DNA of 64,000 nucleotides from an uncultured Acidimicrobiaceae bacterium (lineage in GTDB: Bacteria > Actinomycetota > Acidimicrobiia > Acidimicrobiales > Bog-793), in NCBI GenBank assembly GCA_963807575.1, contig CAWECD010000017.1, forward strand, positions 125,176-189,175. The letters are read 5' to 3'. Under the pieces are notes generated by a model. The model saw only the letters and a program-made list of their open reading frames with translations. It did no database searches and was not told where the DNA came from. Positions 24,091 to 59,590 of this stretch are shown here, piece by piece. Positions within the stretch are counted from its first letter, which is position 1. Each line of letters starts with the position of its first letter. A program made the position numbers and the translations under genes.

Positions 24091-24167
24091 TGGCGCCCCC
24101 GGGAGGACTCGAACCTCCGACCGTCTGCTTAGAAGGCAGCTGCTCTATTCCGCTGAGCTACGGGGGC
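24091..24167 (-). tRNA. tRNA-Arg (anticodon TCT), CCA encoded
   Basis: Reverse complement GCCCCCGTAGCTCAGCGGAATAGAGCAGCTGCCTTCTAAGCAGACGGTCGGAGGTTCGAGTCCTCCCGGGGGCGCCA folds as cloverleaf with loop CTTCTAA. Confidence 0.85.
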
Positions 24168-24296
24168 TTGCCCGTCCCTGCGATATCGCCGCCCGCAAGC
24201 GTACGGGATCTCGGCACCTACTCTGGGGGAACCGGGGTCGGCATGCTCGTCTTGGTGCGTCGGCCTCGTCGTCCGAAGACGAGAGGAGCCTCGCCC

Positions 24297-24656
24297 ATGG
24301 CCGTCCGCATCGAGATCGGGATCGACACTGTCATGCCGGAGATACTTGCCCAGTTCTGGGCAAGTGCCCTCGGATACACCGTCGGCGACATGGACCGAGC
24401 TGGAACTTATCTCGATCTTGTGCCTCCGGATCCGGGCTTGCCCGTCGTGTACCTGCAACGGGTCCCGGAAGCGAAGACTGGCAAGAACCGCCTGCATCTC
24501 GACATTCTGACGGCCGAAGCGGAGCAGACCATCGCTCGGCTCATCACGCTCGGGGCCACGCGGTTAGGCACCGCGATGTCTGGGAGCGAGGGAGGCTGGT
24601 GGCAGGTGATGGCCGACCCGGAAGGCAACGAGTTCTGCGTCTGCCGCGTCGAGTAG
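24297..24656 (+). CDS. VOC-family (glyoxalase/bleomycin-resistance fold) protein
   Basis: 119 aa from internal ATG (MAVRIEIGIDT...); NRLHLDI and GNEFCV motifs typical of VOC; upstream part of ORF is antisense of tRNA-Arg. Confidence 0.7.
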   Translation: MAVRIEIGIDTVMPEILAQFWASALGYTVGDMDRAGTYLDLVPPDPGLPVVYLQRVPEAKTGKNRLHLDILTAEAEQTIARLITLGATRLGTAMSGSEGGWWQVMADPEGNEFCVCRVE

Positions 24657-24741
24657 CCCGGGCGCCAGCGGCGGCTGGCTTCGGGTTGTCGCCTCGACTG
24701 TGCCATGCTTTAGGTGCATCGAGAGGCACAGCCTCAAGATC

Positions 24742-24816
24742 ATGGTGGCCGTAGCTCAGTTGGTTAGAGCGCCAGGTTGTGGCCCTGGAGGTCGGGGGTT
24801 CAAGTCCCCTCGGTCA
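24742..24816 (+). tRNA. tRNA-His (anticodon GTG) with extra 5' G(-1)
   Basis: GGTGGCCGTAGCTCAGTTGGTTAGAGCGCCAGGTTGTGGCCCTGGAGGTCGGGGGTTCAAGTCCCCTCGGTCACC; anticodon loop TTGTGGC. Confidence 0.85.
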
Positions 24817-24867
24817 CCCTCTGTTGGTCGGTACGGTCGCGAGACCGACTAGGCTCACCGGCCGGAC

Positions 24868-24944
24868 GCGCCTCTAGCTCAATTTGGCAGAGCAACGGAC
24901 TCTTAATCCGCAGGTTCCGGGTTCAAGTCCCGGGGGGCGCACCA
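24868..24944 (+). tRNA. tRNA-Lys (anticodon CTT), CCA encoded
   Basis: GCGCCTCTAGCTCAATTTGGCAGAGCAACGGACTCTTAATCCGCAGGTTCCGGGTTCAAGTCCCGGGGGGCGCACCA; anticodon loop CTCTTAA. Confidence 0.85.
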
Positions 24945-36074: not shown

Positions 36075-37550
36075 GTGGAGGGGGGACGGACCACGGCGCC
36101 ACGAAGCGCTAAACGACAGCCGGGCATCACCTCCCACACGGGCCTCGCCATGGTCGTGGTGATGACAGGGGTCCTCATCACCGCCGTCGACACGACGATC
36201 GTGGTCCTAGCGCTTCCGGAGATCGAACGAGGGCTGCACGTAGCACTCTCCTCGGTCATCTGGATCGTCATCGGCTACCTGCTCGTCATCACCCTGCTCG
36301 CCACCCAGGTCGGACGGCTCGGGGACATGTTCGGACGGGTACGCATGTACGAGATGGGCTTCCTTGTCTTCATCCTGGGTTCGCTCGCGTGTGCTCTCGC
36401 GTGGAACGAGACGGCCATCATCGGCTTTCGGATTCTTCAGGCCGTCGGCGGGGCGTTCGTCACCGCCAACAGCGGTGCGGTGATCGCCGACCTGTACCCT
36501 GTCGAACGGCGTGGACGCGCCTATGGGTACAACTCGATCGGTTGGAGCATCGGGGCCGTCCTCGGGATCGTGCTGGGGGGCCTGATCGTCACCTACATCT
36601 CGTGGCGCTGGATCTTCTGGATCAACGTGCCGATCGGCGCTGCCGCGTTGGTCCTCGCAACCAGGGTGCTCCACGATCACGGCCAGCGGGCCCGCCGCCA
36701 CTTCGACCTCCTGGGCATGGTTACCCTCGGCCTCGGGCTGTTCGGCGTGCTCTGGGCCATGACAACGCTCGCCACATCGGCATTCGACGCCTCCGTGGCC
36801 GGCTACTTGATCGGTGGGGTCGTGCTCATCTGCGTCTTTGTCGTCGTTGAGCTGCGCCAGTCCGAGCCGATGCTCCGCCTCTCGCTGTTCAAGGTCCCGA
36901 TGCTCGCACCGTCGCTGCTCGCCGCGTTGTTCCAGGGACTCGCCAACTTCGCCGTGCTCTTCCTGGTCATCATGTACCTCCAGGGACCCCGGGGACTTTC
37001 CCCAATCCACGGCTCGCTACTGCTCGTGCCCGGCTACGTGGTCGGTTCGGCTGTCGGCCCCTTCGCCGGGCGATCGGCGGATCGGTTCGGACCGGTGATA
37101 CCGGCAACAGTTGGGCTCGGTATCCAGGTGATTGCCCTGTTCCTCTACGCGCAGCTCTCGCTTGGCAGCGGCCTGTGGCTCGTCGTCGTCGCGAGCGTCG
37201 TGAATGGGATCGGGGCAAGCTCCTTCTTCCCCGCCAACAACTCGGCAGTGATGAAGGCCTCACCGCCTGACGTGTTCGGGATCTCCTCGGGAATGCTCAG
37301 GACCTTCGCCAACATCGGGATGGTCTTCTCGTTCTCGGTGGCGATCCTCGTCGCCTCCCGCTCGATCCCCAAGCACCTCGCCTTCGCGATCTTCGTAGGC
37401 ACCACGAGCCTGCACGGCCACTTGGCGAAGGTCTTCACGACCGGGCTGCACGCCGCCTTCTATGCCTCGATGGGTTTCATGGCCCTGGCCGCCGTGCTGT
37501 CGGCAACAAGGGCCCAACGCTCACGAGGAGCTCCCGCCAAGAAACCTTGA
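36075..37550 (+). CDS. MFS transporter (DHA2-like, 14 TM)
   Basis: Motif A-like GRLGDMFGRVRMY, 14 predicted helices. Confidence 0.8.
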   Translation: MEGGRTTAPRSAKRQPGITSHTGLAMVVVMTGVLITAVDTTIVVLALPEIERGLHVALSSVIWIVIGYLLVITLLATQVGRLGDMFGRVRMYEMGFLVFILGSLACALAWNETAIIGFRILQAVGGAFVTANSGAVIADLYPVERRGRAYGYNSIGWSIGAVLGIVLGGLIVTYISWRWIFWINVPIGAAALVLATRVLHDHGQRARRHFDLLGMVTLGLGLFGVLWAMTTLATSAFDASVAGYLIGGVVLICVFVVVELRQSEPMLRLSLFKVPMLAPSLLAALFQGLANFAVLFLVIMYLQGPRGLSPIHGSLLLVPGYVVGSAVGPFAGRSADRFGPVIPATVGLGIQVIALFLYAQLSLGSGLWLVVVASVVNGIGASSFFPANNSAVMKASPPDVFGISSGMLRTFANIGMVFSFSVAILVASRSIPKHLAFAIFVGTTSLHGHLAKVFTTGLHAAFYASMGFMALAAVLSATRAQRSRGAPAKKP

Positions 37551-37564
37551 CCAGGGAGAAGCGC

Positions 37565-40500
37565 CTATGAGCAACCACTCGTCGAACCGCAGCTCGGGCA
37601 GGCATAACACGAGCCGGCACGCTGCATGACGTTGCCGCAGGCGTAGCAGAACGGGGCGTCCTTGCTCTCCATCTGTCCCGCCTGCCTCATCTGTTCGGTG
37701 TCACTCGGTCGACGCCTTGCCGCTGTGTCCCCGCCGGCGCCGAACCGCTCGCGATCGGTCCGCTCCGCGTCCCCGTTGTCGACATCCTCGAGCCCGGGCA
37801 ATGTCGGTTGCGTCCGTTCCCCCGTCGAGAGCACTCCGAGCTCGAGCCGCTCGTCAAAGCTCAAGTAGTCGAGGGCCAGCCGCCTGAAGATGTAGTCGAC
37901 GAGGCTCGAAGCCAGTCGCAGCTCCGGGTCGTCGGTGATCCCTGCCGGCTCGAACCGGAGGTTGGTGTACTTCCGGACGAAAGTCGACATCGGAACGCCG
38001 TGCTGGAGCCCGAGACTGACGGCGATGGAGAAAGCATCCATGACACCCGATAGGGTCGAACCCTGCTTGGAGACCTTCATGAAAACCTCACCGGGGCGGC
38101 CGTCTTCATACTCGCCCACTGTGACGTAGCCCTCGCAGTCGGCCACCCGGAAGGCGAAGGTATTGGAGCGACGTTTGCGGGGCAGCCGGGTTCGCGTCGT
38201 AGTGGCAGGGGCGATCACATGTCTCTGCTGCAGCGCACCCTCGAGCTCCGCGATGCGCTCGAGCAGCGCTCCCTCCCGCACGAGGCTTGCCCGTGAGGCT
38301 TCTGACGCGACATCGTCATCGTCGCCCAGGAGCGGTGCGCCGGCACCCGCCCACTTCGTCGTCGCCAGCGGCTGGGCAACCTTGCAGTTGTCGCGGTAGA
38401 CGGCGACCGCTTTCAGGCCCATTTGCCAGGCATCGATGTGCAGCTGCTCGACTTCTTCGACCGTAGCCTGCTCGGGAAGATTCACCGTCTTTGAAATGGC
38501 ACCCGAGATGAACGGCTGCGCCGCGGCCATCATCTTCACGTGACCCAGATAGTGGATCGTGTTGTCACCCATGGAACAGGCGAAGACCGGCAAATGCGCC
38601 GCCTTCAGACTGGGCGCCCCCAGGATGGTCTTGTGCTCGTCTATGTAGGCGACAATCTCGTCGATCTCGTCAGCACTGTAGCCAAGCCGCTTCAACGCGC
38701 GGGGAACGGTCTGATTGACGATCGACATCGTGCCGCCACCGACGAGCTTCTTCGTCTTCACAAGTCCAAGATCAGGCTCGATCCCCGTCGTATCGCAGTC
38801 CATGAGGAACGAGATCGTTCCCGTAGGCGCCAGCACCGTCGCCTGGGCATTGCGCACGCCATAGGCCTCGGCTAGATCGACCGCGGTGTCCCAGGCCTCC
38901 TGCGCCGCGCAGAGAAGCTCGGTCGAGACCTGTTCCTCGTCGATCTTCGCCACCTCGACGCGGTGCATCCGCAGTACGTCCAGCATCGGGCCCGCGTTCT
39001 CATGGAAGCCGGCGAACGGCCCCATTCTCGCTGCCGTGCGGGCCGAGGTCGCGTACGCCGCGCCCGTCATGAGAGCCGTGATCGTCGCCGCGATGGCCCG
39101 GCCCTCGTCCGAGTCGTAGGGCACGCCCTGAGCCATGAGCAGCGCCCCGAGGTTTGCGTAACCGAGGCCCAGCTCTCGGAACCGGCGCGTTGTGTCAGCG
39201 ATCTTCGCCGTCGGGTAGTCGGCGTTGCCGACAAGGATCTCCTGAGCCGTGAACACGATGGTGACGGCCGCTTCGAACCCCTTGGCGTCGAAGGTGTCGT
39301 CGTCGTTCAAGAAGCGCATGAGGTTGAGGCTGGCGAGGTTGCAGCTGCTGTTGTCGAGGTGAACATACTCAGAGCAAGGGTTGCTGGCCGTGATCCGGCC
39401 TGTGTTGGGCGCCGTGTGCCACTTGTTGATGGTCGTGTCGAACTGGATGCCGGGGTCCGCGCACTCCCACGCGGCCTCTGCGATCTGACGGAACAGGCCA
39501 CGCGCCCTGAGAGTCTCGATGACCTCGCCCGAAGTCCGGCTGATGAGATCCCAGTCGGCGTCGTCGAGCACTGCCCGCATGAACTCGTCTGTCAGCCGGA
39601 CCGAGTTGTTGGCGTTCTGGTACTGAACGGACTGGCTGTCCCTGCCATCCAGGTCCATATCGAAGCCGGCCTGTGCCAACACACGCGCCTTGCGCTCCTC
39701 ACGGGCCTTGCACCAGATGAACTCTTGGATGTCCGGGTGGTCGGCATCCAGGATCACCATCTTTGCCGCGCGACGCGTCTTGCCGCCGGACTTGATCGTT
39801 CCTGCAGAGGCGTCCGCCCCGCGCATGAAGCTCACGGGCCCCGAGGCCGTCCCGCCCCCGTGAAGCAGCTCCCGGGAAGACCGGATGTTCGAAAGGTTGA
39901 CTCCCGCGCCAGACCCACCTTTGAAGATCGTGCCCTCCTCGACGTACCAATTGAGAATGGAGGCCATCGAGTCCTCGACGCCCAGGATGAAGCAGTTGTG
40001 AACACGCAGACCGGAGCTCAGGTACTCGCCGCTCTCGGTCTGGATGTCAAAGACGTCCATCTCGCCGACGTCCTCGATCCCTGTGATGTCCAGTCGCCCG
40101 GAGATCTCCCCTTCACAAGAGGAATCGGTCCGGTGCCAGCTCAGCTGGTCCCCCACCTGCAGCTCAGCGGCGGGAACGAACCGGCCGGTATCTTCGCCGC
40201 TCGCCCGCCACACGAGATGATCAGCGGTGACGTCGAGCTGGTGCCCGGCCTTGGTCGTAACGCGCAGCACGTGCTTGCGCCCGTTGGCCTTGACCGCCAC
40301 GATGCGGGTCAGACCATCGGCGTCGAACACCTTCTGACCGACGGCTTCGTCCTCGACGAGGCGCCCGATCGGGACAGGGCCGCCAGGAGTCGAGACCAGC
40401 GCGTCATAGGGTTGGCACGCGGCAGCCTGCTGCGGCACACCTTCAACGCCGATGTTGAACCAGACCGGTGAGTTGAACGCCGCCTTCTGCTGCACGACGA

Positions 40501-40894
40501 GGTGCTTGAGCTCGTCGCTGAAGATGGCCGCCTCGGCCGAATCAACGAAATACCCGTCTTTCAAGCCCCATGCCGTGATCGTGTCCACGACACGGTCGAC
40601 AATCTGCCGCAGCGAGTGTTCCCGTCCCGGCATGCCGACGGTACCTCGGAAGTACTTCTGAGCGAGGATGTTGGTCGCATTCAGGCTCCAGGTCGAAGGC
40701 ACCTCGACACCGGGCTGTTCGAACGCGACAGCCCCGGTGCGGTAGTCGCTGATGCGGGAGTCACGGAGCTCCCAGACGACCTCGCCGTAGGGATGGCGGG
40801 ACTCCGTGGTGAAGTGTCGTCGGATGCCAATTCCGAGGCGCTCTCCTGCAACGGCCATTGAACGGTGCCCTCCTTGGCGGAACCTGTCCACCAC
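37565..40894 (-). CDS. nrdJ: class II (adenosylcobalamin-dependent) ribonucleotide reductase NrdJ, intein-containing, C-terminal zinc ribbon
   Basis: FNSPVWFN and active-site ...AAAC|FILGVED split by intein; long actinobacterial NrdJ form; C-terminal CYACGN...CYACPSCG; true start may be the ATG 12 codons in (MAVAGERLG). Confidence 0.9.
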   Translation of the reverse strand: MVDRFRQGGHRSMAVAGERLGIGIRRHFTTESRHPYGEVVWELRDSRISDYRTGAVAFEQPGVEVPSTWSLNATNILAQKYFRGTVGMPGREHSLRQIVDRVVDTITAWGLKDGYFVDSAEAAIFSDELKHLVVQQKAAFNSPVWFNIGVEGVPQQAAACQPYDALVSTPGGPVPIGRLVEDEAVGQKVFDADGLTRIVAVKANGRKHVLRVTTKAGHQLDVTADHLVWRASGEDTGRFVPAAELQVGDQLSWHRTDSSCEGEISGRLDITGIEDVGEMDVFDIQTESGEYLSSGLRVHNCFILGVEDSMASILNWYVEEGTIFKGGSGAGVNLSNIRSSRELLHGGGTASGPVSFMRGADASAGTIKSGGKTRRAAKMVILDADHPDIQEFIWCKAREERKARVLAQAGFDMDLDGRDSQSVQYQNANNSVRLTDEFMRAVLDDADWDLISRTSGEVIETLRARGLFRQIAEAAWECADPGIQFDTTINKWHTAPNTGRITASNPCSEYVHLDNSSCNLASLNLMRFLNDDDTFDAKGFEAAVTIVFTAQEILVGNADYPTAKIADTTRRFRELGLGYANLGALLMAQGVPYDSDEGRAIAATITALMTGAAYATSARTAARMGPFAGFHENAGPMLDVLRMHRVEVAKIDEEQVSTELLCAAQEAWDTAVDLAEAYGVRNAQATVLAPTGTISFLMDCDTTGIEPDLGLVKTKKLVGGGTMSIVNQTVPRALKRLGYSADEIDEIVAYIDEHKTILGAPSLKAAHLPVFACSMGDNTIHYLGHVKMMAAAQPFISGAISKTVNLPEQATVEEVEQLHIDAWQMGLKAVAVYRDNCKVAQPLATTKWAGAGAPLLGDDDDVASEASRASLVREGALLERIAELEGALQQRHVIAPATTTRTRLPRKRRSNTFAFRVADCEGYVTVGEYEDGRPGEVFMKVSKQGSTLSGVMDAFSIAVSLGLQHGVPMSTFVRKYTNLRFEPAGITDDPELRLASSLVDYIFRRLALDYLSFDERLELGVLSTGERTQPTLPGLEDVDNGDAERTDRERFGAGGDTAARRRPSDTEQMRQAGQMESKDAPFCYACGNVMQRAGSCYACPSCGSTSGCS
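39995..40417 (-). other. 141-aa mini-intein inside nrdJ (no homing-endonuclease domain)
   Basis: Starts with Cys (CQPYDALVSTPGGPVPIG, block A), TxxH block B (VTTKAGHQL), ends ...GLRVHN followed by Cys+1 (CFILG); removal reconstitutes the conserved RNR active-site AACF motif. Confidence 0.75.
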
Positions 40895-40933
40895 ACGAGA
40901 TCCTTCGCCTGGAAATCACCCAAGTCCCGCATA

Positions 40934-40949
40934 CCACAATATCTTGTGG
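40934..40949. promoter_or_regulatory. NrdR box upstream of nrdJ
   Basis: CCACAATATCTTGTGG, 16-bp palindrome matching acaCwAtATaTwGtgt consensus; about 40 bp 5' of nrdJ ORF start. Confidence 0.55.
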
Positions 40950-41110
40950 TGCAGCAGAATATGACTACCAGATAGGTGGCTAATTACAACACCGTAGTTC
41001 CGGCCGTGTCAACGGACGGCCGCGTCGGTCATCCCTGCTCAGAGACCGCTCGCGAAGGTTCCCGTTTGCTTGCTCACGCAAAGGGCGCGCCCTCCACACC
41101 CTAACGAGGT

Positions 41111-42700
41111 GTGTGTGCACCCACCTGGGCGCTCGGCCGACGGACCGGGTACCGTGCCGTCGTGGCCGTCGTGATCGCGATCGATGCCGGGACCTCAGGG
41201 GTGCGGGCACTTGCCGTCGACGAGGACGGCCAAGTCGTGACCGCTTCCTACAGGGAGCTCCACCAGTACTTTCCCGCTCCCGGACTTGTCGAGCACGACG
41301 CTGCCGAGATCTGGTCCCTTGTCGAGACGACCCTGGCGGAGCTGCAGTCGGAGCTGACGCGACGTTCGTTGACAGCCGCCGCGATCGGGATCGCCAACCA
41401 ACGTGAGACGGCGGTGGCATGGGACCGTTCGACAGGCCGACCGTGCCATCGCGCCATCGTGTGGCAGGACCGTCGGACGGCCGCGCGATGCGTCGAGCTC
41501 GCCGAAGCCGGTCGGCTCCCGCTCGTTCGCGAACGGACCGGGCTCGTGCTCGACCCGTACTTCTCGGGCACCAAGTGGTCGTGGATGCTCGAGCGCGGCG
41601 GGGTCGAGCCCGGTCCTTCGCTCGCGTTGGGAACTGTCGACGACTGGATCTGCTGGAACCTGACGGGAGGTACGAAGTCGGGAGTGCACGCCACGGATCC
41701 CTCCAACGCCAGCCGTACGCTCTGTTACGACATCTCGCAGCGGACCTGGTCGGCGGAACTGTGCGAGATCCTCGGAGTACCGCTCGACGCCCTCGGCGAG
41801 GTCCTCCCGTCCACGCGCAGGTACGCAACAGCAGCGGCCGGTGTCGCAGGTGGCTGTGTCAAGGGTGTCCCGGTGAGCGCCATGATCGGCGACCAGCAGG
41901 CTGCGCTCTTCGGGCACGGCTGCCACCTGCCCGGCGACATTAAGGTCACCTACGGCACCGGGAGCTTTGTGCTCATGAACCTCGGCGCGCGGCGACCCCC
42001 ACCAATCGAGGGGCTCCTGACCACGGTTGCCTGGGACCTCGGGGACCACGCGCCGAAGGGCATTGACGGCTTCAGTTACGCCCTCGAAGGCTCCATATTC
42101 TCCTCCGGCGCGACGATCCAGTGGCTGCGCGATGGTCTCGGGTTGATCGGCGAGGCGGCCGAGGCCGGCCCGCTTGCCTCCCAGATCCCGGGCAACGACG
42201 GGGTGTACCTCGTCCCTGCTTTCGCCGGCCTGGGGAGTCCCTGGTGGGACCCACAGGCGCGGGGCACCATCGTGGGCATTTCAAGAGGGACCGGGCGGGC
42301 ACACTTCGCCCGTGCGGCTGTCGAGGCCATGGCCTACCAATGCCGCGACGTCCTCGAGGCGATGGTGCTTGCCGCTGGTCAGAGGATGGTCCGCCTCCAT
42401 GCCGACGGCGGAGCCTCCGCGATGGACCTTCTCTTGCAGCTCCAAGCGGACCAGTGTGGAGTGCCTGTGACCCGTCCTCACACAACTGAGGTCACAGCGA
42501 TGGGCGCCGCCATGCTCGCCGGGCTCGCTGAGGGCGTCTGGGGCTCCCTGGAGGAATTGGGGGCTTTGCCGACCAGGGCCGAGGTCTTCGAGCCTGCGCC
42601 GAAGCGCGGTCGGGCGGACGCAGATCACGCCGCTTGGACAAGAGCGCTCGAACGGTCCAGAGGCTGGGAACGAGACTCGACGCAGACCACGACGCCCTAG
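41111..42700 (+). CDS. glpK: glycerol kinase
   Basis: FGGY motifs: IAIDAGTSGVRA, VWQDRRTA, YFSGTKWSWML; true start probably a GTG ~40 nt downstream of 41111. Confidence 0.85.
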   Translation: MCAPTWALGRRTGYRAVVAVVIAIDAGTSGVRALAVDEDGQVVTASYRELHQYFPAPGLVEHDAAEIWSLVETTLAELQSELTRRSLTAAAIGIANQRETAVAWDRSTGRPCHRAIVWQDRRTAARCVELAEAGRLPLVRERTGLVLDPYFSGTKWSWMLERGGVEPGPSLALGTVDDWICWNLTGGTKSGVHATDPSNASRTLCYDISQRTWSAELCEILGVPLDALGEVLPSTRRYATAAAGVAGGCVKGVPVSAMIGDQQAALFGHGCHLPGDIKVTYGTGSFVLMNLGARRPPPIEGLLTTVAWDLGDHAPKGIDGFSYALEGSIFSSGATIQWLRDGLGLIGEAAEAGPLASQIPGNDGVYLVPAFAGLGSPWWDPQARGTIVGISRGTGRAHFARAAVEAMAYQCRDVLEAMVLAAGQRMVRLHADGGASAMDLLLQLQADQCGVPVTRPHTTEVTAMGAAMLAGLAEGVWGSLEELGALPTRAEVFEPAPKRGRADADHAAWTRALERSRGWERDSTQTTTP

Positions 42701-42844
42701 GGTCATGAGGGGCTTCGAGCCCCTCCACAACATGGTGATCCAACAGGCAGCACCAAGGGGTCGACGGGTCTGCCCCAAGTAAGGCTCAGTGCCGTTTCCA
42801 CCGGTGCCGATGGTTACTCCACAGCTGTTGCAAGTGCGGATCAT

Positions 42845-43639
42845 GTGGGAGCCGGTAAATCGATGGTCGGACGCGACTTCACAACAGCAGGGAGAACCCG
42901 CGTCGGGTCGATCCGGCCCTTCGTCACGGTGTCGATGGCACTGCTCATCGGGCTGGCCGTTCTTGGCCCCTTCGGGCTCCTCACGGCCGGCGATGCGAAC
43001 GGGCAGCCTGCGCCGATTGGCCGCCTCGCGCCGGGCGTGTCCGCGGCTGCGCGAAGCGTTGAGTCTCCCAGCTGGTGGCAGGGTGGCACCTGCGATCCAA
43101 GAAACGCCCCCGGATCTCAGATCCTTGGTGCCTCCTGGCACGGTCTGGTGGCGTGTGGTCCAGGTACGACGCAGGGCGGCAGTGACCACATTGTCTTCTT
43201 CTTTCCCGGCGCTTGGGGCGAGCTCGAATGGGAATGTGTGGAGCTCTCGATGCGCTGGATGTACCTCGCCTGGGGTGTGAGCCCCTACCCGGCCGACGGT
43301 TGGGACCTCGTGCGCAACTACGACCTCTTCAAGGCCAGGTACAACCCCTACGGGCCCCAACTACTGGTCGTCGCGAACGGCACGGTCGGAGCCGTCCCGC
43401 AACCCGGCGACGTCGTGTCGGTCGGCCGCACCCACACCGACAGCTTCGGCCACACGGCGGTCGTGACCGCGAGCGCTGTGGACGCCCAGGGCAACGGGAC
43501 CATCACCTTGATCCAACAGAACGGCGGTGCCGGCAACGACGGATGGGCAACCTATGCCATGAACAACTGGGTCGTCGCCGACGGGGTCACCGGTTGGCTC
43601 CACGACCCTTCGTGGACGTTTCAGCGGCCGCTGGTCTGA
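42845..43639 (+). CDS. secreted CHAP-domain peptidoglycan hydrolase
   Basis: Signal peptide; catalytic Cys (EWECVELSMRW), His (DSFGHTAVVTAS) and following TLIQQNGG (EQN-like) motif of CHAP amidase/peptidase domains. Confidence 0.7.
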   Translation: MGAGKSMVGRDFTTAGRTRVGSIRPFVTVSMALLIGLAVLGPFGLLTAGDANGQPAPIGRLAPGVSAAARSVESPSWWQGGTCDPRNAPGSQILGASWHGLVACGPGTTQGGSDHIVFFFPGAWGELEWECVELSMRWMYLAWGVSPYPADGWDLVRNYDLFKARYNPYGPQLLVVANGTVGAVPQPGDVVSVGRTHTDSFGHTAVVTASAVDAQGNGTITLIQQNGGAGNDGWATYAMNNWVVADGVTGWLHDPSWTFQRPLV

Positions 43640-44401
43640 TACACCGGGCCACCCGGGTTCGAGGCAGGCATTGCAGCACCTGGCAACGGCTTCGAGCTTG
43701 TTGCCACCAACGCGAGCTCTATTTCCGTTTCCGGTTACGCGGGCGTCATGGGACCTGACGGCGGTGCCGTCTACGGTCACATCGACCAGCTCGGCAACTT
43801 CTTCGTGCGATAGGGCGCGCCCCCGGCCTGGTATCTCGCGGCCCAGCACGCCACGTCGATTGCCATCGCCACTACCCCGTCGGGAGTGCTGGTCCTGGCC
43901 TTTTTGAGCACGACTGGTGACTTCTATGCCGAGCAGGGCTCGCTCACTGGGCCCTTCACTCTCGAGGCTACGGGCGTCAGCTCGATCGCACTCGCCGAGG
44001 GCACCACGCCGTCGAGTGGGTTGATGGGATACCTATCGATCAACGGGAGTTTCTTCGTGAGCGAGGTCTCCCTTGAGGTGCAGTGGACGCTCGAAGCGCG
44101 CGGCGTGGCGGCCATTTCCCTGGCCGCAGTCGGACCCACGGGCGAACCGCTCCTCGGCTACCTGGCGGGGAGCTGCTTCTACGCAGCCGAGGGCCTCACC
44201 CCGGCCACCTGGGTCCCGGAGGCGACCGGTGTGGCTGAGATGGCGGTCGCGTCCGACTCCGCACCGGGCGCCTCGCCAGTCCTCGGCTATGTCACGATCA
44301 CCGGCAACCCCGAAGTGCTGCAAGGTCAGCCCTCCAGCCGTTTCTCGTTGCAGGCCAGTGACGTCTCGTCGCTTGCTCTCTCGAGCGTCACCGACTCCTG
44401 A
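43640..44401 (+). pseudogene. 43-aa tandem-repeat region in the same frame as the CHAP gene, separated from it by in-frame TGA (43637) and TAG (43811)
   Basis: No stop other than those two across 42845-44401 in this frame; peptide between the stops (…ASSISVSGYAGVMGPDGGAVYGHIDQLGNFFVR) aligns with downstream repeats (TLEATGVSSIALAEG…LMGYLSINGSFFVSE). Confidence 0.4.
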
Positions 44402-44752
44402 ACGCTTCGTCTCAGGGCGCCTTGTGAGGCAATAGGCGGCGCCTTGCCAAGTAGGTCGGTTGGTCCCGACTGGCCCGCCTGCCGCCGCTCAAGGGCGAGT
44501 GCACCCGTGCCGATGATTGTTGTACGACCCCGATTGCCTTGCGAGGGAAGTTGGGAACCACGGCCGGCGTTGCATGGCCCGCCAAGCCGAAGATGAAGCA
44601 TGACCCCTTTCAGGTGCGCTCAGCTCTCGATTCGCGGATCGAGAGCTGGCCGGCGCCCGCGACCACTCCCCGGGCCAACAGTCGACCCGGCTCGGGACGG
44701 GAATAGCGCGCGACGGCCGTGCGGTTGACGCTTGGAGTGAGGGGGTGCACCG

Positions 44753-45448
44753 ATGAACTTGACCGACGAGTTCGAAGTTCCGCTGGGTGTTGCCGAGGCA
44801 TGGACCGTCCTCACAGATGTCGAGAAGATCGCACCTTGCCTGCCCGGAATCTGGCTCCGAGAGGTGGCGGGAGACGAGTACCAGGGCGTCGTGAAGGTCA
44901 AGGCCGGACCGGTCACGGCGTCATACGAGGGCGTCGCCCGCTACCTGCTGCTCGATGCGGACGCACACCAGGCCGTGCTGAAGGCAGAAGGACACGAGAT
45001 CCGTGGGCAAGGAAAGGGCACGGCCCTGGTCACCGCAACCCTGTTCCCCTCAGCCGCAGGCACCAGGGTCCAGGTCGTCACGGTTCTCTCGATCGACGGG
45101 AGGCTCTCGTTCCTTGCCGGTGATGCGCTGGCCGCCGTGTCGCGCAATCTGATCGCCGAGTTCGCCGAGAACCTGGAGAAGACGGTGTTGGCCACGCCCG
45201 AGGCCGTCACCGCATCGCCAGCCGATCAAGCCCCCTCCGAGGCACTCCCCGGGAATCTCACCGAAGTCTCTGCCGATGCCGAGCCGCCAGCAGCCGGTAC
45301 AGACCAGGCCCAGAGCCACGCGTCGACTGCCGGGGCCGAGCAGGAGCGGGGGTCGTTGACGAGGCGCCTCGCGCCGTACCTGACCGTTGCGGTGTTCCTT
45401 CTCATCGCGCGGATCGTCCTTAACTCGCAGCGTCGGCGACGGCGATAG
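44753..45448 (+). CDS. SRPBCC-fold protein, CoxG-like, with C-terminal membrane anchor
   Basis: N-terminal 140 aa match carbon-monoxide-dehydrogenase subunit G family pattern; Ala/Pro-rich linker; terminal LTVAVFLLIARIVL helix and RRRRR. Confidence 0.6.
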   Translation: MNLTDEFEVPLGVAEAWTVLTDVEKIAPCLPGIWLREVAGDEYQGVVKVKAGPVTASYEGVARYLLLDADAHQAVLKAEGHEIRGQGKGTALVTATLFPSAAGTRVQVVTVLSIDGRLSFLAGDALAAVSRNLIAEFAENLEKTVLATPEAVTASPADQAPSEALPGNLTEVSADAEPPAAGTDQAQSHASTAGAEQERGSLTRRLAPYLTVAVFLLIARIVLNSQRRRRR

Positions 45449-45537
45449 CGACGGCGATAGGCCAAATCGACTGTGAGGCCTTCGCCGGGCTGCTCGAAGG
45501 CCGATGCCAGTGCCCTCATCGATGACCTTGAGCGGGG

Positions 45538-47418
45538 TCAGTCCGCCCCCGGCACACCCGATTCAGGCTCACCGTCGGGACCGAAGCCCAACGACTTTGC
45601 GAACATCTCGGTGAAGGACCGATGCACCGTCAGCTCCACGTAGCGTACGCGGTTGGCCAGGCTGTCCGCCATCGCCCGACGTTCTCGCGACAACAGCAGC
45701 TGCTGGGCCCCCCGGCCCGCGGCATTTCCCACCTGCCGGTAGCGCTCTCGCCCCACATTCACTAACAGCCCCACGCCTATCGCGCTCTCGAGATCCAGGT
45801 AGGTGCCAAAAGCACCCGCCACAATGACGCTGTCCAGGCTCTTGGCCCCGATGCCGGCCTCTCTCAACAAGATCTCTGTACCGGCCCGGATCGCACCTTT
45901 GGCAAGCTGAATCTCGTTCACGTCAGAACGAGTGAAGACCACGTCGCGCCCATGGCCTGCCCGGCCCGCCGGCACCAGCAGGCAGGTGGGCCCGCTCTCG
46001 GTGCTGCTCACCAGCGGATGACCCTTGACGAGCGACCCTCGCTGGTCGATGATCCCGGCTTTCAATCCCTGGGCCACCACGTCCAGGATGCCCGAACCGC
46101 AGATGCCGATCGGTGGCGCCTTGGCGATGGTCTGCACCTGGAAAGCGCCCCCGTGAAAGCGCACGTGCTCGACGGCGCCGGGCGCCGCCCGCATCCCGTC
46201 ATGAATGTGCGCCCCCTCAAATGCCGGACCCGACGCAGTCGAGCAGCTCCAGATCGCGCCCTTGTGCGACAAGCTGATCTCCGTGTTCGTGCCAATGTCA
46301 AGGGCCAGCACAGTCAGTGTGGTGTCTGCCAGCCCGCTGGCCAGGAGCATCGCCACGTGGTCGGAGCCGACATAGCCCGCGATATTCGGCGGCAGATAAA
46401 GGGTGGCTCCCCCGTCGAGGTGCACGCCGATCTCCTCGGCACGCACCACCATTGAGTCGCTCACGCAAGCGACGTAGGGGGCCTCGCCCAACTGGCGCAC
46501 AGGCAGATCGGTCACAAAATGGTGCATGGCCGTGTTCCCGACCACGACGGCATCGACTATCTGGCCACGGTCCGCGCCGGCTTGCTGGCACAGCTCGCCC
46601 ACCATTCGGTTCAGCTCGTCAACCAGCCTCTCGTGCAGCAACTGTTTAGCCCCGTCAGCGGTGTTCGCGTAGGTGATACGAGTAACGACGTCTTCGCCGT
46701 AGGCCGTCTGAGGATTCATGGCGCCGACCTTGGCCAACGTCTCGCCACTGGCGAGGTCGACCAAGTACCCGGCCAGCTTGGTCGTTCCGGCGTCCACGGC
46801 CAGGCCGAGCAGCGCCCCGCCGGCAGGTTGGACCGAGACGAGCACCCCGGTACCCTCTGGGTGCCTGTACACAGCCCCTCGTCCCCGCCACTGTTGTGCG
46901 CGCAGCCGGTTCGAGCACGCCCTGGCACTCCCCAGGCTGATAGTGGTCGCTCCCGCGCCCGCCTGAGCCAGCGCCTCTTGCAACCGCGTGGTGTCGGCGC
47001 GCAAGTCATGCAGTGAAGGAGGTTCGAGCACCAGATCTACGCCGATGACCGGTGGGTCCAGTGTGAAGTCCACAGCCTGACCTTCGGTCTGCAGACGCTG
47101 TGGGGCACTGAGCGACTCGGGAGGTATTTCCAGGCGGACCGCACCACACACCAGCGCCTGGCAGGCCAGCCGCCAGCCCTCGCCACGCTCGATGGCAGTC
47201 AGCAGGCTCTCTTCCTCGGCGGTCTCAGCGCCGAGCGGGCCGTCGACCGCCCGGACGCGACAGGTGCCGCAGGTGCCCCCCCCGCCACACACCGACACCA
47301 TCTCGACGCCCGATGCCTGTGTGGCCTCCAAGACCGTCACGCCGGGCGCTACTCGCACTCGCCGGCCCACCGGCTGCAGCTCCACGCTGACAAGCGCTGC
47401 GGGATCGGCCTCAGCCAT
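45538..47418 (-). CDS. RACo-type reductive activator of corrinoid proteins ([2Fe-2S] ferredoxin + ASKHA ATPase, DUF4445)
   Basis: N-terminal plant-type ferredoxin CGGGGTCGTC; C-terminal sugar-kinase/Hsp70/actin fold with DAGTTK and DIGTNTE phosphate motifs. Confidence 0.8.
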   Translation of the reverse strand: MAEADPAALVSVELQPVGRRVRVAPGVTVLEATQASGVEMVSVCGGGGTCGTCRVRAVDGPLGAETAEEESLLTAIERGEGWRLACQALVCGAVRLEIPPESLSAPQRLQTEGQAVDFTLDPPVIGVDLVLEPPSLHDLRADTTRLQEALAQAGAGATTISLGSARACSNRLRAQQWRGRGAVYRHPEGTGVLVSVQPAGGALLGLAVDAGTTKLAGYLVDLASGETLAKVGAMNPQTAYGEDVVTRITYANTADGAKQLLHERLVDELNRMVGELCQQAGADRGQIVDAVVVGNTAMHHFVTDLPVRQLGEAPYVACVSDSMVVRAEEIGVHLDGGATLYLPPNIAGYVGSDHVAMLLASGLADTTLTVLALDIGTNTEISLSHKGAIWSCSTASGPAFEGAHIHDGMRAAPGAVEHVRFHGGAFQVQTIAKAPPIGICGSGILDVVAQGLKAGIIDQRGSLVKGHPLVSSTESGPTCLLVPAGRAGHGRDVVFTRSDVNEIQLAKGAIRAGTEILLREAGIGAKSLDSVIVAGAFGTYLDLESAIGVGLLVNVGRERYRQVGNAAGRGAQQLLLSRERRAMADSLANRVRYVELTVHRSFTEMFAKSLGFGPDGEPESGVPGAD

Positions 47419-48067
47419 GGTGGGAGATGTGCTCTTCCCGGTAGTGGCAGGTCGCAGCCATAGAGCAGTAGTCGCAGGACTCGCCGGCGTGCTCTACGTC
47501 CGGCCCGATACCGATCGCCATGGAGGTCGACTTCTTCGGCACCATCATGTAGCCGTCGGTCAATCTGACACCCGCCGAGGCCGCGTCGAGGAGGGCGAAG
47601 ATCTGGCGCTGGCCGCTCGCTACCGGCCAGCCCACCAGGCCCGGGCTCAGGGGCACGGTGGTCTGAAGTCCCTCGGCGTTGGCCCGCTCGTCCACCATCT
47701 GGCACATGGCTTGGCCCAACAGGTCAACCGCGGCCGAGCCGAAGGCGTCAAGAGCGAGCGCCAGGGCCGGGTTCTCGGCGAAGCACGCCGAGGCCGTCTC
47801 CTCGAGCGCGGGGCCGATGGAGCAGACGGCCAGCACTACCGAGAGTGCGGCATGCAGGTGCTCGGCGACGAGCGGGCCGGAAAGATAGCCCCCCTCTTCG
47901 AGGCGGACCCGCTCGTGGCGGAACTCTCTCACCGGGAAGCTCTCGGTCACCACGACCGGGGCCAGGAGGGGCCTACCGGCTGTGACCGCCTGCTCAGCGA
48001 CACCGAGCGCCGATGACCGGCGCCGGCGCACGACCGTCGGGTCCGCGCCAAGTGAGCGCAGAACCAT
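47411..48067 (-). CDS. hypothetical protein of corrinoid-methyltransferase operon (C-terminal CxxC...C..H motif; possibly DUF1638-like)
   Basis: 218 aa, start/stop overlaps with neighbours (translational coupling); C-terminal ESCDYCSMAATCHYREEH. Confidence 0.45.
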   Translation of the reverse strand: MVLRSLGADPTVVRRRRSSALGVAEQAVTAGRPLLAPVVVTESFPVREFRHERVRLEEGGYLSGPLVAEHLHAALSVVLAVCSIGPALEETASACFAENPALALALDAFGSAAVDLLGQAMCQMVDERANAEGLQTTVPLSPGLVGWPVASGQRQIFALLDAASAGVRLTDGYMMVPKKSTSMAIGIGPDVEHAGESCDYCSMAATCHYREEHISHHG

Positions 48068-48105
48068 CTCGGCGTCGGGGCTGAGCGCCCAGTCCTTGAT
48101 CAGTT

Positions 48106-48741
48106 TCAGGCGGCAAGCACCTCTTTCACCAGGCGCACGGCACTGGAGGCGTCCTCCGCGTAGCCGTCGGCCCCGATCTCGTCCGCATACGACTTGGTGA
48201 TCGGCGCCCCTCCGATGACGATGCGCACCTGGTCGCGGAGTCCCGCCGCTTTGATCGCCTCGATGGCGACCTGCATGTTGATCATCGTCGTTGTCAACAG
48301 CGCCGACATCGCCACCACGTTCGCCCCGTCGCGGATCGCCTGGATGAACTTCTCCGCCGGAACGTCCACGCCCAGGTCGACGATCTCGTAGCCCGAGCCC
48401 TCGAGCATCATCGCCACGAGGTTCTTCCCGATGTCGTGCAGGTCCCCCTGGGTGGTGCCGATCGCCACCTTGCCGCTGGATGCCACCCCCTCTTCTACGA
48501 GGTGGGGCTTGAGCACGCTGAGCGCCGCTGTCATGGCCCGGGCGGCCACCAGCATCTCGGGCACGAAGATCTCACCTTCCTCATAGAGCTTGCCCACCTC
48601 GGCCATGGCCTTGATCAGGCCCTCCCGCAGCAAGGTCCCCGCCTCGATGCCGCCGTCCAAGCCCTCGGTCACCTTGGCGACGGCAAGCTTTGCCTGCCCG
48701 TCCACTACTGCCTCACGAAGCTCCTCGATCAACGCCATGGC
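48106..48741 (-). CDS. cobalamin-binding corrinoid protein (MtaC/MtbC-like)
   Basis: B12-binding N-cap helix bundle then Rossmann domain with DxHxxG motif (GDLHDIGKNLVAMMLEGSGYEIVDLG) and SALLTTT; start at internal ATG MALIEEL. Confidence 0.8.
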   Translation of the reverse strand, partial: AMALIEELREAVVDGQAKLAVAKVTEGLDGGIEAGTLLREGLIKAMAEVGKLYEEGEIFVPEMLVAARAMTAALSVLKPHLVEEGVASSGKVAIGTTQGDLHDIGKNLVAMMLEGSGYEIVDLGVDVPAEKFIQAIRDGANVVAMSALLTTTMINMQVAIEAIKAAGLRDQVRIVIGGAPITKSYADEIGADGYAEDASSAVRLVKEVLAA

Positions 48742-48879
48742 GTTCCTGCTCCATTCTCCTGGTGTTCGATGCGGACGTGCACAGCTTCGGGACACGCGAG
48801 CCCAGATCGTCGTCGACCCCGAGCGAGCGGACTTCCCGCGATGTTGCCGCCACACGCGGATGCCTGGCCAAAGACACTG

Positions 48880-50295
48880 CTAGTCGCCGTACTGCTCGGT
48901 CAGTTCGCTTGCCATCTGGGCCCACTGCCACAGGCGCTGAGGCTCATAGCGCACGGTGCTCACGTCTTTCATGATGACCTCGACGACGCACCCGTGCGCC
49001 TTGGTCTTGTCGAGGACGGTCTTCAAGTCGTGCCTGGCCTTGTCGAGGTTCCAGGTGGTCTCGGCGAACACCGCCGGGTTGGGCTTGTGGGAGAACACGT
49101 AGCGGCTGCCCACATTGGCCACGGCCTCGTCGATATTGACCCAGGGGCTCATCGACACCTTGCGCAGGTTGGGCACCTTCTCCAAGATGGCCATCTTGCG
49201 GTGCAGGGGATCGCAGCAGCCGTAGTAGGTCAAGCCGAACCGGCTCATCCACCTCAGCTCGTACTGCAGCGAGAACTCCCAGTGCATGCGCGGCGAGACG
49301 TCGGAGAAGATCTGGGCGGCGCCGCTGCCCCAGAGGTCCTTCGCCCGTACGTGTGCAGGGTCGAAGTCCGGAGGCGGCAGCTCGTGCGTGTAGCCGAGGC
49401 CGCCAGAACCTATCCGGAAGTAGGCGTTGTTGAGCGTCAGCAGGTCCTGGGCTTCAAACTGGTCGAGCATGGCGCAGTAGGCGTTCACGAGCTTGTCTAT
49501 GGCCTTGTGGACGAACTCGGGACGGTCGTAGAGGTCCACCATGGCCTCCTGGACGCCCCACCACCTGATCATCTCGTCCCAGGGCGCGAACCAGAAGCAG
49601 AAACCATTCGCCCCAAGCTTGTTGACCTCGACGACCCCGTCCATGATCTCCGACAGCTGCTCGTGCTGCTCCTCGGATGCCGCAGCGTCATGGGTAATGA
49701 CCGGGACCTTGATCTTCTCGAGGTCGTCCTCATCTCGTATCTGGATGTTGAAGTGCCGGGAGACAACCGAATTCGCCTCGTCGGTGACGGCAATGTCCAC
49801 GTCTTCGGCGATACCGAACGCCGTGTTGTGCACCACCAACGGCGACCACACCACCGGTTCCACGACCATGTCCGCCGCCATGTGCTGCCATTGATAGATC
49901 AGCTTGCGCATCTCCCATTCGTGGTAGCGGCTCCACTCGCTGGATGTCTGCAGGCGCAACTCGCCGTCGACGTCCATCTCGTGCCACGGGACCTCGTCGA
50001 TCCAGACCATCGGCTTGACATGCTTGAGCCCGTTCATGGCACGCCAGCTGGAGGCGGTCTCGGCGTGCCCCGGCAGCGCGGCGATGGCCGCCAGCCGCTC
50101 GCCCAAGTGGCGCAGGACCTTCTTGTCGGCTTCGGTGACCTCTGCGGGGGTACCCGTCAAGGTCCCTCTTCGTGACGGGTCGACCAGCCAGTTTGTATCC
50201 TCCATCGAAACTCGCCCCAATCCTTGGGCTTGAAACGAAATTTCTGCGACCTTACCAGATCCGATCTGAGCCTCAGAAATCGTTATCTGAGTCAT
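48880..50295 (-). CDS. URO-D-fold methyltransferase (MtaA/CmuA-like) with ~150-aa N-terminal extension
   Basis: Segment FAPWDEMIRWWGVQEAMVDLYDRPEFVHKAIDKLVNAYCAML parallels HemE/MtaA SPWTLA...LYxEPELLHxLLDKLT region; operon context with corrinoid protein and RACo. Confidence 0.55.
   Translation of the reverse strand: MTQITISEAQIGSGKVAEISFQAQGLGRVSMEDTNWLVDPSRRGTLTGTPAEVTEADKKVLRHLGERLAAIAALPGHAETASSWRAMNGLKHVKPMVWIDEVPWHEMDVDGELRLQTSSEWSRYHEWEMRKLIYQWQHMAADMVVEPVVWSPLVVHNTAFGIAEDVDIAVTDEANSVVSRHFNIQIRDEDDLEKIKVPVITHDAAASEEQHEQLSEIMDGVVEVNKLGANGFCFWFAPWDEMIRWWGVQEAMVDLYDRPEFVHKAIDKLVNAYCAMLDQFEAQDLLTLNNAYFRIGSGGLGYTHELPPPDFDPAHVRAKDLWGSGAAQIFSDVSPRMHWEFSLQYELRWMSRFGLTYYGCCDPLHRKMAILEKVPNLRKVSMSPWVNIDEAVANVGSRYVFSHKPNPAVFAETTWNLDKARHDLKTVLDKTKAHGCVVEVIMKDVSTVRYEPQRLWQWAQMASELTEQYGD

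Positions 50296-59238: not shown

Positions 59239-59590
<352 letters not shown>

Follow-up and report, generated by a model that had tools for sequence, protein, structure and literature searches.

The CHAP domain (cysteine, histidine-dependent amidohydrolase/peptidase) characterizes a group of peptidoglycan hydrolases (PF05257) which are modular in design and combine the catalytic CHAP domain with a wall-binding module. The isolated CHAP domain of the staphylococcal phage endolysin LysK (CHAPk) is lytic alone, and autolysins of the SsaA/Sle1 type are further examples. Here we describe a CHAP gene on contig CAWECD010000017.1 of an uncultured Acidimicrobiaceae bacterium, an actinobacterium of peat or soil (NCBI GenBank assembly GCA_963807575.1), based on the analysis of a stretch of 64,000 nucleotides of this contig (hereafter the window, whose first letter is position 1; all features of the gene lie on the + strand). 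The reading frame of this gene, 42845–44401, runs on through two stop codons, and comparison with its intact relatives indicates, with high probability, that it has recently been truncated to a CHAP-only enzyme, the sequence downstream being a pseudogene remnant of a CHAP-propeller gene.

The window protein is like the described CHAP hydrolases in having an above-cut-off CHAP match and the conserved Cys and His motifs, and the intact protein of its relatives shares their modular organization with an N-terminal export signal, a catalytic domain and a C-terminal non-catalytic repeat domain. Unlike that of known CHAP hydrolases, the C-terminal module of the intact family is, as modelled, a seven-bladed β-propeller and not an SH3b, LysM or choline-binding repeat, and unlike CHAP hydrolases in general the window copy has had this module destroyed. 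Relatives of this CHAP domain bear other C-terminal modules (B_lectin, TIG and fn3; P0098–P0118), a variety that fits the "catalytic domain plus targeting domain" design with a presumptive targeting role for the variable part.

The frame 42845–44401 contains only two internal stops, TGA at 43637–43639 and TAG at 43811–43813, and ends at a terminal TGA (44399–44401); the remaining frames of the same segment have 2–19 stops each. As long open frames occur by chance in a genome of 66% GC, the G + C content at third codon positions (GC3) was examined along the frame; it amounts to 0.80 up to the TGA, 0.70 from there to the TAG and 0.82 beyond it, and outside the frame limits it falls to 0.45 on the upstream and 0.61 on the downstream side, so the coding signal is continuous through both stops and the frame is not a chance one. 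The single frame with exactly two internal stops, reported in a first-pass annotation made from the letters and a list of open reading frames (ORFs), is thus borne out by translation, the ORF list and GC3. The same annotation was mistaken in stating that no start codon occurs between the stops, since an in-frame ATG (43748) and GTG (43805) lie within these 57 codons, although they could yield only peptides of ≤21 aa. The likely true start of the gene is ATG 42863 (MVGRDF..., matching the orthologs) rather than the alternative upstream GTG at 42845, which the ORF list places in the same frame.

Using the conceptual read-through product as query, 181 relatives were found, the best ~40 of which are uninterrupted proteins of 535–560 aa (about 557) that cover 95–99% of it; those that are named carry the annotation "CHAP domain-containing protein [Acidimicrobiales bacterium]". 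The uninterrupted CHAP-repeat protein that the first-pass annotation proposed to look for among orthologs therefore exists, as a fused form of ~557 aa, in more than 40 lineages, its architecture being a signal peptide or anchor, the CHAP domain and then seven repeats of 42–45 aa. Among GTDB species representatives (one genome per species) the family occurs in uncultured Acidimicrobiaceae/Acidimicrobiales metagenome-assembled genomes (MAGs) from bogs, fens, SPRUCE peat and Danish soils, where of the 20 loci nearest to the window gene 15 are uninterrupted, as are 15 others at greater distance, so that 30 of 35 loci have no in-frame stop within the match; the other five have one frameshift each, at differing places. 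The locus of the intact reference protein P0001 (L001) has the gene order of the window (MFS, RNR, glpK, CHAP gene, COXG, RACo, B12-binding), with flanks of ~93% nucleotide identity. Closer relatives were reached by cluster look-up, namely the intact 557-aa protein P0123 (loci L091/L092), with 95–97% nucleotide identity over the locus. The closest is the sister strain L090, 99.2–99.4% identical over 12.7 kb and 99.3% over the locus, in which GGA, CAG and the blade DNA are all present. The order RNR-glpK-CHAP-COXG-RACo is the same in L001, L090, L091 and L093, whose flanks are 93–99% identical to the window.

Set against these orthologs, the window gene carries three lesions. The first is the TGA at 43637–43639, derived by one G→T change from GGA, the codon of a Gly that is nearly invariant in orthologs; GGA is read in L001, L090, L091, L092 and L093, and TGA in L094, L095 and L002–L007. 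The second is the TAG at 43811–43813, derived by one C→T change from CAG, which encodes Gln in the closest intact orthologs. The third is a 135-bp (45-codon) in-frame deletion with its junction at 43973–43978, recognized by codon comparison with L001 and by alignment with L090, L091, L093 and L001. It removes codons 370–414 of L001 and joins the beginning of blade-unit 3 to the corresponding position in unit 4, with the crossover in a shared GGNGTC motif, so that exactly one repeat is gone and the frame is kept. The segment between the stops (43640–43810, 57 codons) is a remnant of blade 1 and the first half of blade 2, as indicated by ortholog alignment, blade homology and its GC3, and would be untranslated unless the TGA is read through. 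The segment from 43814 to 44401 corresponds, by ortholog alignment, to the remaining blades up to the ancestral stop. With two in-frame stops and one blade deleted, the window does not encode a complete translatable set of blades. Among its explanations the first-pass annotation had listed a CHAP-repeat hydrolase recently inactivated by two nonsense mutations, a reading that is supported for both stops and that overlooked the deletion.

The same lesions recur in other assemblies. Five of them (L002, L003, L005, L006 and L007) match all 1539 nt of the window gene without a difference (100% identity), L004 and L095 differ by one 1-bp indel each and L094 by three mismatches over 2060 nt; all eight carry the TGA, the TAG and the deletion junction. 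One is an NCBI assembly, others are long-read assemblies from ENA, and four different runs are represented by Logan assemblies of short reads; samples and assemblers differ among them. Elsewhere these contigs differ from the window by 0–4 single-nucleotide polymorphisms (SNPs) over 2.4–12.8 kb, which means that they are not copies of one assembly but independent samplings of one near-clonal lineage. A sequencing or assembly error, by which the stops and the deletion would be absent from the real genome, is for these reasons virtually excluded, and with it the base-call errors offered by the first-pass annotation: long-read assemblies of relatives do carry indel errors (a split RNR, single frameshifts), yet none of the lesions is a homopolymer indel, two being substitutions and the third a 135-bp deletion, and they recur base for base in the eight assemblies.

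In the ENA "contig_N" long-read assemblies of relatives several genes are split by 1-bp indels, RNR for instance being distributed over 2–4 ORFs in L004, L090, L093 and L096, and single frameshifts at varied places of the CHAP-propeller gene are seen in L021, L022, L026 and L028. Both the splits and the frameshifts are probably assembly noise rather than biology, and the apparent number of pseudogenes in these MAGs would be inflated by them.

The pattern of substitutions separates the two parts of the gene. Relative to L090, the window has 1 substitution in the 774-nt CHAP part and 21 in the 765 nt after the TGA, a rate ~20 times higher, and flanking genes have ~5 per kb; the excess of 21 over the flanking rate is highly significant (Poisson P = 8e-10). 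Nineteen of the 21 post-TGA substitutions are derived in the window, and they fall on the three codon positions in proportions of 8:5:8. When L001/L008 and outgroups are used for comparison, the ratio of nonsynonymous to synonymous changes (N:S) after the TGA is 16:16 on the window branch and 5:17 on the intact branch, a borderline difference (Fisher P = 0.05). Four window-derived replacements (Y312H, S326P, V341I and P349L) affect positions that are invariant in 10 outgroup orthologs. By this contrast the propeller part is decaying and the CHAP part conserved. The window copy shows the properties of a partial pseudogene, namely disabling lesions relative to intact syntenic orthologs, their reality in the population and relaxed constraint. 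As in ordinary bacterial pseudogenes, the lesions have become fixed in a near-clonal lineage, and where the gene is disabled the substitution rate is raised irrespective of codon position; nothing essential sets the gene apart from them, except that the first stop lies near the start of the first blade and leaves a clean catalytic domain.

Several observations weigh against this reading or limit it. Intermediates between the intact allele and that with all three lesions were not encountered. Compared pairwise with L001, the post-TGA part has a still low ratio of nonsynonymous to synonymous substitution rates (dN/dS), 0.25; all that follows from this value is that the gene was inactivated recently in comparison with the split from L001. 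With L090 as reference, neither the N:S ratio (12:9 in the remnant) nor a codon-position test tells the remnant and the flanking genes apart, so that the density of substitutions alone discriminates. Besides, L090 is a noisy long-read assembly, with RNR in three ORFs and small indels in the blade region, so that part of what distinguishes it from the window may stem from errors or from mixed strains. Substitutions in the remnant (27/kb) are as dense as, or somewhat denser than, a rough neutral estimate of 12–20/kb obtained from synonymous and intergenic sites would predict, which makes the import of this segment by recombination possible. Finally, the single substitution in the CHAP part, compared with 3.8 expected, is alone not significantly low, and the CHAP-only ORF could be dead.

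The last point leads to a reading in which the whole gene is dead and the conservation of the CHAP ORF merely reflects recency. We regard it as unlikely. It would account for three lesions occurring in one gene, and paralogous CHAP proteins with other C-terminal domains, present in related MAGs (L046–L087, with L075 in the same MAG as L001), could make the loss tolerable. It accords poorly with the contrast between the CHAP part and the adjacent remnant on the same branch, with the position of all three lesions at or past the domain boundary, and with a start, export signal, Pfam match and catalytic Cys/His that are untouched.

Three further observations concern the comparison with L090. The intergenic segment between glpK and the CHAP gene (42701–42862) has 7 differences in 162 nt (43 per kb), the highest density in the 12.7-kb comparison, which may reflect drift of the promoter region or errors in L090. 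Over 37257–49956, ~75 of 83 substitutions are derived on the window side and 6 on the other. This asymmetry is unexpected for sister strains and suggests either that the L090 consensus is pulled to co-occurring strains or that the window branch is long. That L090 is a mere mosaic with an L093-like strain was discarded as the sole explanation, L090 differing from L093 at 21 of 764 remnant sites.

The readable remainder of the gene is an ORF of 258 aa plus the TGA (42863–43639), comprising the signal peptide or anchor and the CHAP domain; since its stop comes six residues into the first propeller blade, it amounts to a clean export signal plus CHAP protein. After a basic N-terminus the translation has a hydrophobic segment, PFVTVSMALLIGLAVLGPFGLLTAG (42917–42991), conserved in orthologs and presumed to be a signal peptide or membrane anchor. 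The CHAP domain match (43220–43522) covers aa 126–226 of the 264-aa ORF with E = 2.4e-8 and 34.8 bits, against a gathering cut-off of 26. The Cys of EWECVELS and the His of FGHTAV, which we take to be catalytic from what is generally known of CHAP domains, are conserved without exception in 64 orthologs and retained in the translation of the window gene. Gene calls on contigs of several other samples include an identical 258-aa product (5 contigs in one cluster listing). Given the few substitutions, the intact signals and the activity that isolated CHAP domains can have, the CHAP-only protein is probably still functional, a suggestion made with moderate confidence.

The events can be pictured as follows. 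The intact gene would encode a secreted or anchored protein of ~557 aa with a CHAP peptidoglycan amidase/endopeptidase domain and a seven-bladed propeller, the latter a presumed targeting or ligand-binding module for a putative cell-wall or glycan ligand. The G→T change turned the Gly codon at the CHAP/propeller boundary into TGA, the C→T change a Gln codon into TAG, and illegitimate recombination between two blades deleted the 135 bp. Translation would now end at 43639 and produce a CHAP-only protein of 258 aa that keeps the export signal and the catalytic Cys/His, and the 762 nt downstream would be a pseudogene remnant that drifts neutrally.

A different fate for the two stops, programmed or leaky readthrough or a local recoding of TGA and TAG that restores the full-length CHAP-propeller protein, was also among the explanations of the first-pass annotation and is very unlikely. 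In its favor, the frame and its GC3 signal do run on through both stops and the downstream dN/dS against L001 is 0.25. Against it, the high downstream rate is spread evenly over codon positions, and besides the stops the gene has lost one blade. Neither site is a stop codon in any other ortholog examined, whether among the aligned orthologs, the 35 GTDB loci or the closest loci (L096 was read at the CAG site only). The 80-nt segments after the stops are predicted to fold no more stably than shuffled sequences (z = −0.40 and +0.92), and no suppressor tRNA was found in the 64-kb window. TGA and TAG serve as ordinary terminators: glpK, COXG and RACo end at TAG, TAG and TGA, respectively, with the same lengths as in their orthologous loci, and among 46 coding-like frames in the window TGA ends 25 and TAG 18 (43 of 46 together). 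Judged on the window, a genome-wide reassignment, which would leave TGA or TAG unused as terminators and involve a suppressor tRNA, is thus not indicated. Selenocysteine and pyrrolysine were ruled out as candidates, because the orthologous residues are Gly and Gln (at the TGA, Gly and not Cys) and no structure follows the stops. The gene therefore represents an ordinary partial pseudogenization in an uncharacterized member of a known enzyme class and not a case of recoding. A crude screen of the window for other genes interrupted in frame returned mostly adjacent genes that share a frame by chance. The window also contains a transfer-messenger RNA gene (tag AEPQLALAA) and tRNA genes for Arg-TCT, His-GTG and Lys-CTT (59239–59589; 24091–24944), none of which is a suppressor.

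The lost module is confidently modelled as a seven-bladed β-propeller. In the AlphaFold model of P0001, built on a 64-sequence alignment, residues 253–557 have a predicted local distance difference test (pLDDT) score mostly >90 and form 28 β-strands in 7 groups of four; closure of the ring is read from the fold matches. The best Foldseek matches in the PDB are all propellers (RCC1-like domains, the fungal fucose lectins AAL/AFL/AofleA, PLL5 and tectonin), with probability 1.0, a template modelling (TM) score of about 0.5–0.6 on the target, identity of 9–15% and E ~1e-7. In the window the equivalent of P0001 residues 253–557 is about 43622–44398, the module beginning at ~43622, just before the TGA. 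Comparison of blade against blade with hhalign on the family alignment gave probabilities of 96–99% and E values of 1e-9 to 1e-16 for 21 of 21 pairs. These comparisons confirm the homology that the first-pass annotation had proposed between the 57 interstop codons and the repeats downstream. Its count of ~4.5 copies of a 43-aa unit covers the part after the TAG only, the module having 7 units when intact and 6 in the window.

At the DNA level Tandem Repeats Finder detected no repeats in the window, and an ungapped BLOSUM autocorrelation of the window peptide gave marginal signals at offsets of 43, 85–86 and 95, about 2–3 standard deviations above shuffled sequences. The repeats are ancient, diverged blades and not recent tandem duplications, so the term "tandem repeat" holds at the protein or profile level only. 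The module had no Pfam match at E ≤ 10 and no NCBIfam match at E ≤ 0.1. A sequence-profile search of the PDB with the propeller returned no propeller, only chance matches to alanine racemase (E = 0.12), and a literature search combining CHAP, β-propeller and peptidoglycan hydrolase returned nothing relevant. In fold (7 × 4 strands, by Foldseek) the module of the intact family is like the propellers of AAL/AFL/AofleA, PLL5, tectonin 2 and RCC1-like proteins; unlike the lectin-type, tectonin and PLL propellers, it has with them an identity of 9–15%, a generic propeller similarity and no membership by sequence profile. With lectins among its structural neighbors, the wall-binding-type role suggested at first is plausible for a β-propeller, and a lectin function would be by analogy only. 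The module is widespread in Acidimicrobiales of peat and soil and always fused to this CHAP domain.

A second truncation of the same type occurs in the species of protein P0002 (71% amino-acid identity), where a C4→C3 allele changes CAGTGGCCCCTGG to CAGTGGCCCTGG and shifts the frame (L023 3766–3781; L088 1049–1064; intact in L089, 3766–3782). This frameshift is located 8 nt before the position of the window's TGA codon. The C3 allele encodes a CHAP-only ORF (P0137 on 33 contigs, P0149 on 25) and an overlapping propeller ORF of 303–307 aa (P0151, P0152 and P0164, on 16–27 contigs each); intact forms listed for the P0002 cluster are on 1–2 contigs each. The downstream propeller ORF of this species bears no further lesion and might be kept by frameshifting or separate translation. 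Two independent truncations thus fall within three codons of the same domain boundary, for which the post hoc chance is ~1–2% per pair of events; the coincidence could be due to chance or to selection for a clean CHAP-only enzyme. That propeller loss is a recurrent, selected "domain shedding", each event giving a clean, untethered CHAP-only enzyme, is an idea suggested by these alleles which we hold to be rather improbable.

The frameshift allele of that species, with its otherwise intact propeller ORF on many contigs, lends some credit to a functional split in the window as well, in which the CHAP protein would be accompanied by a separately translated repeat protein (ORF 43886–44401 or similar). 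Gene callers indeed annotate a downstream ORF of 171 aa (P0130, 43886–44401), which appears in the public calls of L002, L003, L005–L007, L094 and L095. Against such a split, the 171-aa ORF starts at a GTG (43886) within a blade and lacks blade 1, half of blade 2 and one further blade; it has no signal peptide and its substitutions are of the neutral type, and an incomplete cytoplasmic propeller would have no obvious role. The split is thus extremely unlikely, and the 171-aa ORF is a fragment of the decayed propeller and a spurious gene call.

Downstream on the − strand, 45538–48738 contains a RACo-type activator (Fer2 + RACo, 626 aa), a 218-aa protein without Pfam hit and a B12-binding-domain protein. 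This gene set is conserved in all related loci and looks like a corrinoid-dependent methyltransferase activation cluster.

Regarding its significance, an apparent candidate for readthrough is in all probability a recent, real and population-fixed truncation that should not be counted as recoding, and the 171-aa gene call should be flagged as spurious in public assemblies. The intact CHAP-propeller family is widespread in peat and soil Acidimicrobiales and remains uncharacterized. The allele series, from intact relatives at 93–99% identity to the lesion-bearing clone in nine samples, provides a dated snapshot of a multidomain secreted hydrolase that is losing its non-catalytic module while its catalytic domain appears to stay conserved.

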